64,000 nucleotides of DNA from Candidatus Latescibacterota bacterium (lineage in GTDB: Bacteria > Latescibacterota > UBA2968), in contig OZ242320.1 of NCBI GenBank assembly GCA_965208125.1, forward strand, positions 1,440,001-1,504,000, in the 5' to 3' direction. Made by a program: the position numbers and the translations under genes. The notes beneath the pieces were generated by a model. That model was not told where the DNA came from and ran no database searches. It worked only from the letters and a program-made list of their open reading frames with translations. Positions 19,629-22,044 of the stretch are shown one piece after another. How positions within the stretch are numbered: the stretch's first letter is position 1; the number at the start of each line of letters is the position of its first letter.

Positions 19629-21137
19629 CTATTGAATTTTCGCCCAATCGGGCATCACCCCGAGTTCAATACCCAGCACAACGCGACCAACAACAGCAAT
19701 CGCAGCAGTAATCATCACAGCCCCAACCAAATTCAACCCCACGCCCACACGCGCCATATCGCGCATAGAAATTCTATCCGTACCAAATACAATCGCATTG
19801 GGTGGCGTGGCTACCGGCAACATAAACGCACAAGAACACGACAACGTAGCTGGAATCATCAGCAACAATGGATTGAGACCCACAGCCACAGACAACGCCG
19901 CCAAAACCGGAAGAAACATCTCCGCCGTTGCCGTATTGGAAGTCAACTCAGTCAAAAAAGTCATCATCACACACAAACCACCGACCAAAAATAGAGGATG
20001 CAAGCGCCCCATATCCTCCAACTGCTGCGCGCACCAGAGCGACAACCCCGACTCTTTAAAACCACTTGCCAGAGCAAATCCACCGCCAATCAGCAACACA
20101 ATATGCCAGGGTACGTTGCCAGCCGTTTGCCAATCCATCACCCTGGACCTCGCGCCATCTCGCGCGGGCACGACAAACAAAATCAGAGCCATTGCCATAG
20201 CAACCGACCCATCGGTTATCAATCCGCCAGATTCGAAAAACTGAGACCAGCCCGGCAGCGTCCAATCGCCAATTTGAATGGGGCGTCTCGACAACCACAA
20301 CAGCGCCAACAACACAAAATCGGCCAGCACGACCTTCTCGGCAAACGACATCGGCCCCAACTCGGTATATTGCGTTCGCACCACACTCAGATCAATATCA
20401 TCGCCGCGACCGCGAATGCCAAAAACGAGGCAAAGCGCACCCCACGCACAAACGAGCATCACGCATGCCAGAGGCAGAGCAAAAGCAAACCACGTCGCAA
20501 ACGAAATCTCGGGAACCTCTGAAAAATGAATGGATAAAATCCTCACAAAAGACAAATTGGTCGGCGTGCCCACAAGCGTTGCGCTCCCACCAATTGAAGC
20601 CGCATAAGCCACCCCCAGAAACACCGCCGTGCCAAAAGAACTATTGGCCACACCCTGCTCTTCCATTCTAACCACAATTGCAAGTGCAATCGGCACCATC
20701 ATCATCGTTGTCGCCGTATTGGAAATCCACATGGACAAAAACGCCGTCACCAGCATAAATCCCGTCAGAATACACCGGGGACACCCCCCAAAAAGAAGCA
20801 GCAAGCGAAGGGCAATTCGCCGGTGTAAATTCCAGCGCTGCATGCCCAATGCCACCATAAAACCACCGACAAACAAAAAGATAATGTGATTCAAATAAAG
20901 TGGCGCAACCTCTTGCCCGCTCATAATACCCAGCAGGGGAAACAACACCACGGGCAACAGTGCCGTCGCAGCCAAAGGCACGGCCTCTGTCATCCACCAA
21001 ATCGCCATCCAGCAGGCCACACCTGCCGTATGTGTCACCTCGGGATGTCCCGGCTTGAGATCTCCAAAGACTGTGACTCCCACCCCAATCACAGGACCGA
21101 GCCACAGCCCCCAGCGTTCTATTTTTTTATTTAGCAT
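19629..21137 (-). CDS. SLC13/DASS family sodium-coupled di/tricarboxylate or sulfate symporter
   Basis: ATG at 21137 after GGAGA. SMWISNTAT, GTPTN, ELTSNTAT, FMLPVATPPNAIVF. Confidence 0.92.
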   Translation of the reverse strand: MLNKKIERWGLWLGPVIGVGVTVFGDLKPGHPEVTHTAGVACWMAIWWMTEAVPLAATALLPVVLFPLLGIMSGQEVAPLYLNHIIFLFVGGFMVALGMQRWNLHRRIALRLLLLFGGCPRCILTGFMLVTAFLSMWISNTATTMMMVPIALAIVVRMEEQGVANSSFGTAVFLGVAYAASIGGSATLVGTPTNLSFVRILSIHFSEVPEISFATWFAFALPLACVMLVCAWGALCLVFGIRGRGDDIDLSVVRTQYTELGPMSFAEKVVLADFVLLALLWLSRRPIQIGDWTLPGWSQFFESGGLITDGSVAMAMALILFVVPARDGARSRVMDWQTAGNVPWHIVLLIGGGFALASGFKESGLSLWCAQQLEDMGRLHPLFLVGGLCVMMTFLTELTSNTATAEMFLPVLAALSVAVGLNPLLLMIPATLSCSCAFMLPVATPPNAIVFGTDRISMRDMARVGVGLNLVGAVMITAAIAVVGRVVLGIELGVMPDWAKIQ

Positions 21138-21235
21138 ATCTTCTCCATGATTACATCTTTGTAGAGATTCAACAATATACACCATAACACAAAAAGACAA
21201 AACTCGTTTGAGCCAACAAAAAATCACGCCTTTCG

Positions 21236-21263
21236 GGAACCTTTCCAGCCTTTAAAAGTAAAA
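21236..21263 (+). promoter_or_regulatory. Putative ECF (sigmaE-like) promoter for sRNA1
   Basis: GGAACC-16 nt-GTAAAA. Confidence 0.4.
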
Positions 21264-21267
21264 GAAT

Positions 21268-21344
21268 ATGCGACAAAGCGTGTCGCAAAAATATCGGCGT
21301 TGACTCCTATACCCCGGCTGAGTCAACGCCGTTACTTGTTTCTT
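21268..21344 (+). ncRNA. Candidate sRNA1 (two hairpins, loop CUAUACCCCGGCU)
   Basis: TGCGACA/TGTCGCA hairpin, then a perfect 12-bp stem CGGCGTTGACTC/GAGTCAACGCCG and a U-rich tail. Confidence 0.5.
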
Positions 21345-21373
21345 GGAACTCTTTACCGTACAAATGCGTCTAA
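21345..21373 (+). promoter_or_regulatory. Putative ECF (sigmaE-like) promoter for sRNA2
   Basis: GGAACT-17 nt-GTCTAA, close to the RpoE consensus. Confidence 0.55.
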
Positions 21374-21378
21374 TTCGG

Positions 21379-21436
21379 TACCATGCAACATCCCTTGAGG
21401 CGTTGGTTATACCCTCCCAACCAGCGCCTCTTTTTT
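21379..21436 (+). ncRNA. Candidate sRNA2 (terminator hairpin, loop AUACCCUCCC)
   Basis: 12-bp stem GAGGCGTTGGTT/AACCAGCGCCTC with a G-U pair valid only on +, then T6. Confidence 0.55.
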
Positions 21437-21446
21437 ATTTATAAAC

Positions 21447-21503
21447 AAAAAAAGCCTTTGAGGGCTCCCTCCCGACACCCTCAAAGGTTTGTAATTCTGC
21501 TAC
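21447..21503 (-). ncRNA. Candidate sRNA3 (loop UGUCGGGAGGGAG)
   Basis: Minus-strand TTGACA(21538-21533)-17 nt-TATTTT promoter, 10-bp stem CCTTTGAGGG/CCCTCAAAGG, then U7. Confidence 0.55.
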
Positions 21504-21539
21504 CGAAGCAAAATAAATTCCCAAAATAACCCTGTCAAC

Positions 21540-21616
21540 AAAAAAAGCGGGCTGCCAACAGCGCTCTATTTATCGGGAGGGAGGAAATAAACAGAATTGC
21601 TGGGGCAACCCGCTGT
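21540..21616 (-). ncRNA. Candidate sRNA4 (long hairpin, loop UUCCUCCCUCCCG)
   Basis: Minus-strand TTGACG(21651-21646)-17 nt-TATGTT promoter. Stem GCGGGTTGCC/GGCAGCCCGC with a G-U pair valid on minus, then U7. Confidence 0.6.
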
Positions 21617-21816
21617 GCATAAAACATACCCAACTTCAAAAACAACGTCAAGAGTATAGACGAAAATTATTACTTAAGCAGCGTTTGAATATCAAAAACC
21701 GTTGTCCGCTGCTAAAAAAGGTACGCGCCGATCTGCCCCGTCTTTTCCGTTGCTTTTCTCGCGTAAACGAATAATTTATCACATCGTCCCTGAAACCTAT
21801 TGCGAAAGGTCCTCTT

Positions 21817-22044
21817 ATGTTTTTCCTGGCAAACCTCCTCACAATTTACGGCTACATCATCATTGCGCGAGCACTCATCTCATGGATAAATCCCAATCCA
21901 TACAATCCACTCATCAGAATAATATGCGCCATCACAGACCCGGTACTCGTACCCCTTCGCCGTCTGTTGCCCGACCTGGGTGGGCTGGACATCTCGCCCT
22001 TTGTCGCCCTCGTCATTATCTGGTTTATCATATCCCTGATTTAG
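21817..22044 (+). CDS. yggT: YggT family membrane protein
   Basis: ARALISWINPNPYNPL...TDPVLVPLRRLLP..GGLDISP. Confidence 0.9.
   Translation: MFFLANLLTIYGYIIIARALISWINPNPYNPLIRIICAITDPVLVPLRRLLPDLGGLDISPFVALVIIWFIISLI

Follow-up and report, generated by a model that had tools for sequence, protein, structure and literature searches.

The 64,000-nucleotide (nt) stretch analyzed here, referred to as the window, belongs to the genome of an uncultured marine Candidatus Latescibacterota bacterium (assembly GCA_965208125.1, contig OZ242320.1, positions 1,440,001 to 1,504,000) and carries two adjacent small RNA (sRNA) units, sRNA4 and sRNA3, whose predicted hairpin loops are exactly complementary over 11 nt. 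Both units are very probably real sRNA genes of the minus strand, as judged from their promoters, terminators and conserved folds. The evidence leans slightly towards pairing of the two RNAs in the cell. Tentatively, we propose that sRNA3, which has a G-rich loop, may be a titrating partner that antagonizes a set of C-rich, anti-Shine-Dalgarno (anti-SD)-like sRNAs through loop-loop pairing, where we infer both the direction of the antagonism and the mRNA targets. The solid part of this explanation is the predicted anatomy, the strand, the conservation and the persistent complementarity of the two units.

Anatomy and strand of sRNA4 and sRNA3

On the minus strand the order is sRNA4, then sRNA3, and a C-rich sibling, sRNA2, converges on them from the plus strand. 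The predicted features of the two tandem units are as follows, in window coordinates.

21623..21651, minus strand: sigma-70-like promoter of sRNA4 (TTGACG, 17-nt spacer, TATGTT; 9 of 12 in a consensus scan)
21541..21616, minus strand: sRNA4, predicted length ~76 nt; long hairpin, C-rich loop of 11 nt, U7 tail
21573..21583, minus strand: sRNA4 loop motif CUCCCUCCCGA, containing CCUCC, the core of the 16S anti-SD
21510..21538, minus strand: sigma-70-like promoter of sRNA3 (TTGACA, 17-nt spacer, TATTTT; 10 of 12 in a consensus scan)
21447..21503, minus strand: sRNA3, predicted length ~57 nt; one hairpin, G-rich loop of 13 nt, U7 tail
21465..21475, minus strand: sRNA3 loop motif UCGGGAGGGAG, exactly complementary to that of sRNA4, containing GGAGG

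The 5' end of sRNA4 was set from its promoter, in which TTGAC and the -10 region are kept in 21 of 21 loci of the genus (TTGACC in 2). Its 65-nt hairpin presents the loop UCCUCCCUCCC and has a minimum free energy of -35.3 kcal/mol, with a z-score of -8.0 and 0 of 200 shuffled sequences folding as well. In an alignment of 23 sequences, 8 of the 21 consensus pairs carry compensatory double changes, and the loop core CCCUCCC is invariant in all 23; the covariance model scores 101.9 bits in the own genome. A small ATG-led open reading frame (ORF) of 16 codons in sRNA4 was rejected as a candidate, because it falls at or ahead of the predicted RNA start and relatives do not retain it.

In sRNA3, a 10-bp stem (CCUUUGAGGG/CCCUCAAAGG) closes the 13-nt loop UGUCGGGAGGGAG and is followed by U7, and the -35 box of the unit starts 2 nt behind the U-tail of sRNA4. 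The alignment, again of 23 sequences, has 16 consensus pairs, 7 of them with compensatory double changes, and the model scores 77.7 bits in the own genome. Within the loop, CGGGAG and GA are invariant, and the core reads GGGAGGG in 22 of the 23 sequences, the other being GGGAGAG in genome G024. Such compensatory changes in the stems, together with nearly invariant loops, are characteristic of hairpin RNAs in which the loop sequence is specifically recognized. Units 2, 3 and 4 have mutually unrelated stems, and the preliminary description of the locus was right that those of sRNA3 and sRNA4 share no similarity. A strict scan for the loop motif followed by a U-run recovered sRNA2, sRNA4 and a further C-rich RNA, sRNA5, but missed sRNA3 because its minimum-energy fold puts two pairs inside the loop; the scan is therefore no census of G-rich-loop RNAs.

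That description had assigned unit 3 to the minus strand from its promoter and U7 tail, with a caveat. Folding does not decide the strand, since the hairpin folds about equally well on both: it reaches -22.0 kcal/mol with a z-score of -2.8 on the minus strand, and a z-score of -4.4 on the plus strand. The comparison set comprised 47 sRNA3 loci: the genus supplied 21, the rest of the order another 21, and 5 more were additional tandem copies; two genomes are represented twice. On the G-rich strand, 47/47 loci have TTGAC[AGT]-N16-18-TAnnn[T/A] at 30-52 nt before the GGGAGGG core, and in 45/47 the hairpin is succeeded by four or more consecutive T, whereas the plus-strand tail is UUUGUAAUU. In four genomes (G002, G012, G013 and G020), unit 3 keeps its distance of ~35 nt from unit 4 despite 1.2-4.2 kb between units 2 and 3, and in genus g6 sRNA3 stands without unit 2 or unit 4 nearby. 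The promoter and U-tract, the linkage of units 3 and 4 and the solitary g6 copies largely resolve the caveat in silico, in favor of the minus strand. At the sequence level, sRNA3 has the promoter and terminator of its own that a sponge-type sRNA would have.

Complementarity of the loops across genomes

Read on the plus strand, CTCCCTCCCGA at 21465-21475 has its exact reverse complement, TCGGGAGGGAG, at 21573-21583, and the match of 11 nt at 100% that had been described for this site is confirmed. It is retained in the genus: among 20 genomes, the complementarity of sRNA3 and sRNA4 spans 11 nt in 16, 10 nt in 2, 13 nt in 1 and 8 nt in 1. The G-rich segment of sRNA3 that matches the seeds of its partners is accessible in the predicted loop, and other C-rich RNAs offer the same kind of partner.

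21345..21373, plus strand: promoter motif of sRNA2, extracytoplasmic function (ECF)-sigma-like, GGAAC-N17-CGTCTAA, conserved in the genus-locus alignment
21378..21436, plus strand: sRNA2, C-rich sibling, hairpin 21397-21430, loop AUACCCUCCC, U6 tail; converges on sRNA3
G000:C1:4889434-4889508 (outside the window), plus strand: sRNA5, third stable C-rich-loop sRNA, loop UCCCCUCCCA, fold -35 kcal/mol

The terminator hairpin of sRNA2 folds on the plus strand at -20.2 kcal/mol (z-score -6.1) and is conserved in the genus-locus alignment. As the preliminary description had noted, the sRNA2 loop can pair with the G-rich site of sRNA3, over 7 nt in the own genome; in the 20 genomes of the genus this match is 7 nt in 11, 8 nt in 1, 10 nt in 3, 11 nt in 4 and 12 nt in 1. 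Probable orthologues of sRNA5 are the second-best model matches in 19 of 20 other genomes of the genus, the exception being G009. Two TTGACA boxes lie 3' of the sRNA5 terminator.

Pairing energies were computed as a contiguous helix plus the cost of opening both sites, a model that covers helix and opening and has loop-loop geometry outside it; it replaced duplex prediction on the full-length RNAs, which gave long unrealistic duplexes with prohibitive opening costs. The accessibility-corrected energy of sRNA3 with sRNA4 is -14.5 kcal/mol, against -7.1 +/- 2.7 kcal/mol for 100 loop-shuffled variants of sRNA4, and that of sRNA3 with sRNA2 or sRNA5 is about -10.8 kcal/mol each.

To follow the two families further, covariance models built from the sRNA3 and sRNA4 alignments were searched in 53 genomes of the order, and sRNA4 was found in 31/53 and sRNA3 in 47/53. 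Three of the sRNA3 matches are weak, and the one inspected (G050) looks like an ordinary gene terminator without a promoter. Across the phylum, as sampled by 151 genomes, sRNA3 occurs in 22/29 genomes of family f1, 17/19 of f2, 1/64 of a third family and 0/38 elsewhere; the module is therefore an order-level one. The tandem of sRNA4 followed by sRNA3 is present in 26 genomes from five genera and two families, namely 21 genomes of the genus together with G024, G036, G048, G049 and G042. In g6, sRNA3 is present in 15/15 genomes and so is a C-rich-loop sRNA of a different family. There the two lie megabases apart, for example at 4.68 Mb and 0.56 Mb in G027, and are still complementary over 9-13 nt (13 nt in G027 and G035). 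The adjacency that had been described for the two units thus holds across the tandem genera and is absent from g6.

Further copies and neighbors of these RNAs were observed. Several g6 genomes hold a second paralogue of the C-rich sRNA (loci L190-L197), mostly ~5 kb from the first, and most of these have a different loop (CCGUCCCCCCGG), for which a poorer match to sRNA3 would be expected. At the g6 loci L155-L171, the short U-tract of sRNA3 overlaps a TTGACA box, and an ORF starting MKCRALCKGGP, which we take to be aldo/keto reductase-like, begins ~45 nt further on; a conserved AT-rich block, AATTTATAAATTTGATAAAATCAATAAA, lies ~200 nt upstream of sRNA3 in this genus. Two genomes, G036 (L134, L169) and G042 (L140, L162), have two sRNA3-like G-rich-loop genes each, one in tandem with sRNA4 and one elsewhere, whose loop flanks differ (CCGGG vs UUGGG in G036, CUGGG vs UUGGG in G042).

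One test of pairing is whether the loops change together. The flanks of the core are matched by lineage, reading CCCGA:UCGGG in g1 and g9, CCCAA:UUGGG in g11 and CCCGG:CCGGG in g6, and the mean match is 10.5 nt for cognate pairs (n=43) against 9.15 nt for cross-genus pairs (n=1172). In a genus-level permutation with hand-picked representatives, the cognate arrangement ranked in the top 0.7-3% by Watson-Crick length at all flank sizes and by energy at flanks of 3-4 nt.

A number of observations weigh against pairing or against the role that we derive from it. The 7-nt cores never vary, and thus say nothing about pairing. The co-variation of the flanks rests on about two independent switches and has exceptions: G001 combines CCCAA with UCGGG and pairs over 8 nt only, the C-rich loop of G028 fits the sRNA3 of g1 (13 nt) better than its own (9 nt), G024 has the core mismatch GGGAGAG, and in G036, G024 and G023 the second flank position is unpaired. 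With other scores or flank sizes, the same hand-picked permutation placed the cognate arrangement at 1-20%, and with 300 random draws of representatives the median was 0.12 (not significant), with 17% of draws below 0.05. The best loop-shuffled variant of sRNA4 reached -14.7 kcal/mol, so that at least 1 in 100 attains the observed energy; any C-rich loop pairs fairly well with a G-rich loop. A kissing helix of 11 bp that joins two closed loops of 11-13 nt is under steric strain, which the energy model ignores. Elsewhere in the genome, twelve sites offer the sRNA4 loop 11 or more contiguous complementary nt. Contigs assembled from metatranscriptomes (4 runs from 4 studies, out of 9 labelled RNA among 14 listed) cover the locus at 88-100% likeness, yet bridge the promoters and the convergent units; they could derive from DNA, and give no strand, no ends and no proof of transcription. 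As regards the role, sRNA3 has the wider spread of the two, and G041 and G026 hold it with no C-rich partner detected. A search with lax filters for sRNA4-like RNAs in G041, G026, G029 and G147 gave nothing below an E-value of 0.01. Finally, sRNA3 is the most conserved member and occurs as a single copy, as would suit a hub no less than a buffer.

The co-variation of sRNA3 and sRNA4, which the preliminary description had put forward as a check, is accordingly suggestive rather than demonstrated: a few compensated flank switches speak for it, and the exceptions and the result of the random draws against it. Nor is the match itself special as a sequence, given the twelve other sites; its position and conservation are. 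A site of at least 11 nt within ~200 nt has a chance of roughly 1 in 1000, by our own arithmetic from the genomic density, and the count in the window of CTCCCTCCCGA-type matches with at most one mismatch is 3 against 0.94 expected, which 6 of 100 shuffles reach (not significant). The real support for the predicted pairing is that both loops, and the tandem arrangement as well, are conserved from genome to genome.

Proposed role of sRNA3 and competing explanations

The source genome, a single contig of 5.75 Mb that is 96.4% complete, provides the context for a role of these loops. The 3' end of its 16S ribosomal RNA is GGATCACCTCCTTT, a canonical anti-SD, and in front of 4837 crudely called ORF starts AGGAG, AAGGA and GGAGG show enrichments of 16-, 13- and 9-fold, indicating that classical SD pairing is in use. 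By the same crude calls, candidate ribosome-binding sites match the sRNA4 loop over 9-12 nt; one of the 12-nt matches precedes an ORF that starts at genome position 4,611,401. No Hfq (PF17209) was found in this genome at its stated completeness, and no CsrA domain (PF02599) in a six-frame search that gave matches in control genomes. The locus therefore differs from Hfq-dependent trans-acting sRNA systems, as no Hfq was found, and from sponges of the CsrB/RsmZ type, as no CsrA was found and sRNA3 is one hairpin only.

In the mechanism that we propose, sRNA4 and sRNA3 would each be transcribed from their own sigma-70-type promoter to their own intrinsic terminator. sRNA4, sRNA2 and sRNA5 would present CCUCCCUCCC in a hairpin loop, imitating the anti-SD of 16S ribosomal RNA, and by analogy with RoxS/RsaE could repress translation by pairing with GGAGG-type ribosome-binding sites. 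The sRNA3 loop UCGGGAGGGAG would bind these C-rich loops by loop-loop pairing, so that both kinds of RNA neutralize each other, and sRNA3 would act as an anti-sRNA, be it sponge or target mimic, imposing a threshold on the C-rich regulators. The preliminary description had already called sRNA3 a decoy for its C-rich siblings. Two points in its favor have gained ground, namely that the units look like independent minus-strand genes and that complementarity is kept, in the five tandem genera and in g6; the direction of the decoy effect has not, in view of the wider spread of sRNA3 (47/53 vs 31/53).

The foremost alternative, which we consider rather doubtful, is that sRNA3 and sRNA4 are independent regulators, with sRNA4 blocking ribosome-binding sites, the sRNA3 loop acting on a C-rich mRNA or another partner, and their complementarity a by-product of SD and anti-SD motifs. 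Mimicry of these motifs alone would yield an invariant GGGAGGG and CCCUCCC in a cell with a canonical 16S tail, the many candidate ribosome-binding sites would supply targets for the sRNA4 loop, and both the occurrence of sRNA3 where no sRNA4 was detected and the non-significant co-variation with random representatives are in agreement with it. Against it, the complementarity runs 2-4 nt past the SD-like core and reaches 13 nt in G027 and G035, the flanks of the two RNAs change from genus to genus in step with each other (GA:UC, AA:UU, GG:CC), and the close tandem arrangement persists in 26 genomes from five genera.

Alternatively, the pairing may be real and its direction reversed, such that sRNA3 is the core regulator or hub and the C-rich sRNAs, some of them behind ECF-type stress promoters, are its inducible antagonists. 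We regard this as unlikely. It would account for sRNA3 being the single-copy, most widely conserved member (47/53) and for its C-rich partners being multiple and lineage-specific: sRNA4, sRNA2 and sRNA5 here, and one or two copies of another family in g6. It would also suit the promoters. A conserved GGAAC-N16/17-CGT motif precedes sRNA2, sRNA5 (GGAAC-N16/17-CGT(C/T)TA at G000:C1 about 4889375-4889405, common to sRNA2) and the candidate sRNA1 described below, in contrast to the TTGAC-type promoters of sRNA3 and sRNA4, and the different promoter types of C-rich and G-rich partners suggest that they may be regulated differently. The GGAAC-N16/17-CGT motifs resemble the ECF-sigma promoter consensus, and that this assignment is only putative counts against the reversed direction. 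Furthermore, sRNA3 has no known or predicted target, whereas the C-rich loops have an obvious large target class in SD sequences. In the Firmicute cases treated in the available text of one study, the G-rich RNA is the sponge (PMC8216469).

A third alternative, that one or both loops are protein-binding decoys (GGA loops for a CsrA-like protein, C-rich loops for a KH-type protein) and RNA-RNA pairing is incidental, is very unlikely. The hairpin loop of sRNA3 does carry two GGA triplets, which we take to be the format of a CsrA site, and the loops are far more conserved than the stems; but the single-contig genome yielded neither CsrA nor Hfq, sponges of the CsrB/RsmZ type offer multiple sites where sRNA3 has one hairpin, and matched flank changes are not expected for protein sites. 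The specific idea of a CsrA decoy was rejected because no CsrA gene was found. Lastly, it is highly improbable that hairpin 3 is no RNA gene at all, but a bidirectional terminator between convergent units or a second plus-strand C-rich hairpin after sRNA2 in an RsaE-like RNA, as might be read from its folding on both strands (z-scores -4.4 plus, -2.8 minus) and from a weak plus-strand RsaE match across units 2 and 3 (16.7 bits vs a gathering score of 79, E 4.7), given the fixed-distance promoter (47/47) and U-tract (45/47) on the G-rich strand, the plus-strand tail UUUGUAAUU, the U6 terminator that sRNA2 has of its own, the 1.2-4.2 kb that part units 2 and 3 in four genomes and the g6 copies of sRNA3 without any sRNA2 nearby.

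Returning to sRNA3 as a titrating partner, an extended version of this reading would be an order-wide, Hfq-independent translation rheostat built from mimics of both halves of the SD interaction. Several anti-SD-mimic RNAs, some of them ECF-induced, would damp strong GGAGG sites, constitutive sRNA3 would buffer them by kissing, and the position of the buffer gene behind the terminator of its partner would ensure co-transcriptional capture. As a whole, we consider this version quite unlikely.

The locus, its occurrence and related systems

sRNA3 and sRNA4 lie in a 680-bp intergenic region, with a gene of the Na/sulfate-symporter family (minus strand, ending at 21137) on one side and a YGGT-family gene (21817, plus strand), followed by a major facilitator superfamily (MFS) transporter, on the other. 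The region is present in 20/20 genomes of the genus at 73-95% identity. It contains one further candidate.

21236-21340, plus strand: sRNA1, candidate small RNA; motif GGAAC-N17-(C)GTA; hairpins at 21269-21287 (small) and 21295-21331 (12 bp)

The 12-bp hairpin of sRNA1 has a 13-nt loop, CUAUACCCCGGCU, that is nearly invariant in 20 aligned loci. The tail of sRNA1 is weak in its own genome (GUUACUUGUUUCUU), and a clear U-tail is seen in distant relatives. Where the tails of sRNA2 and sRNA3 face each other, the segment 21431-21453 is a hot spot for insertions, holding 1.2-4.2 kb in G002, G012, G013 and G020, and in G005 the two halves flanking it sit on different contigs. On the other side, homology to relatives ends near 21707, and the relatives hold ~3 kb of extra DNA before the yggT-like gene. 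A remnant in 21660-21816 comprises a hairpin formed by 21674-21683 and 21707-21716 as well as, on the minus strand, a third promoter-like site (21695-21666).

A search of the 64-kb window with the Rfam covariance models gave no match at gathering score, and sub-threshold matches (E up to 10) in 21100-21850 were at chance level only, the best E being at least 0.65. This covers the C-rich-loop families in Rfam, of which CcsR is presumably an example; RsaOG, which we also take to be an Rfam family, did not match the locus either, as no Rfam family did. When public genomes were scanned with a pattern for the loop and inner stem of sRNA4, 75 loci matched, of which 20 lie in contigs titled Candidatus Latescibacterota or uncultured Latescibacteria metagenome-assembled genomes. 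Among the 55 matches outside Latescibacter*, 17 were inspected and none has the sRNA4 architecture: 5 are chance-like and 12 are an unrelated tRNA-adjacent element. These 12 (L041, L046, L065, L066, L068, L069, L077, L079, L089, L096, L097 and L102) are Bacteroidota contigs, from Sediminibacterium and relatives, that have in common a conserved element with UUUAUUUUUGCCCUCCCAAUAAA just upstream of a tRNA gene, in an architecture unrelated to that of sRNA4. Contigs 88-100% alike to the locus occur in libraries labelled sponge and coral metagenome. A full-text literature search found no paper on small regulatory RNAs in Latescibacterota, its matches being unrelated.

The sRNA families are new, and the regulatory kind to which they would belong is already known. 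Among the closest parallels is RosA of Bacillus subtilis, an RNA sponge for RoxS and FsrA (PMC8216469). According to the available text of that source, RosA is likewise transcribed on its own, from a housekeeping-sigma promoter to an intrinsic terminator; it uses G-rich regions to pair with the C-rich stretches by which its partners bind ribosome-binding sites, and it acts in a host where Hfq is not the RNA hub (PMC8216469). It differs in having ~229 nt and three G-rich regions in single-stranded stretches, whereas sRNA3 is a predicted ~57-nt hairpin with one G-rich loop; in not being described there as adjoining roxS, whereas sRNA3 usually lies directly downstream of its partner; and in being restricted to some Bacilli (PMC8216469), in another phylum and without sequence relation to the locus. 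RsaI (RsaOG) of Staphylococcus aureus similarly binds the C-rich RsaE, RsaG and RsaD by G-rich tracts and has been proposed to be a sponge, but it has a C-rich region of its own for mRNA targets, and the same text describes the sponge role as not yet proven (PMC8216469).

In cyanobacteria, Yfr1 and Yfr2 are two widely conserved sRNA families with nearly complementary conserved motifs that suggest crosstalk; Yfr2 interferes with the interactions of Yfr1 and its targets, and one partner is multi-copy, as far as the available text of the source describes them (PMC6778093). Unlike the loops studied here, their motifs are not SD-like, their phylum is another, and their pairing was tested by experiment where ours is predicted; nor are their genes described in that text as a fixed tandem (PMC6778093). 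RsaE/RoxS (Rfam RF01820), finally, resemble sRNA4, sRNA2 and sRNA5 as short sRNAs with C-rich loop motifs able to pair with GGAGG-type ribosome-binding sites. There is, however, no homology, the sole match (16.7 bits against the gathering score of 79) being on the opposite strand to sRNA3 and sRNA4 and across two separate units, and each RNA here has a single C-rich loop. What is distinctive here is the minimal format of two single hairpins, the tight gene order and the different phylum.

The locus provides at least four new, well-delimited sRNA gene families without an Rfam match, in an uncultured phylum, and a testable circuit of short RNAs in which a G-rich anti-sRNA faces C-rich anti-SD-mimic sRNAs. 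If the ECF assignment holds, stress-induced C-rich RNAs would meet a housekeeping-driven G-rich RNA, an arrangement that would suit a threshold device. If the pairing is true, the antagonism between G-rich and C-rich sRNAs, so far shown in Firmicutes, would have arisen independently in a distant lineage without Hfq and CsrA, and would take there an unusually compact form, that of two single hairpins encoded back to back.

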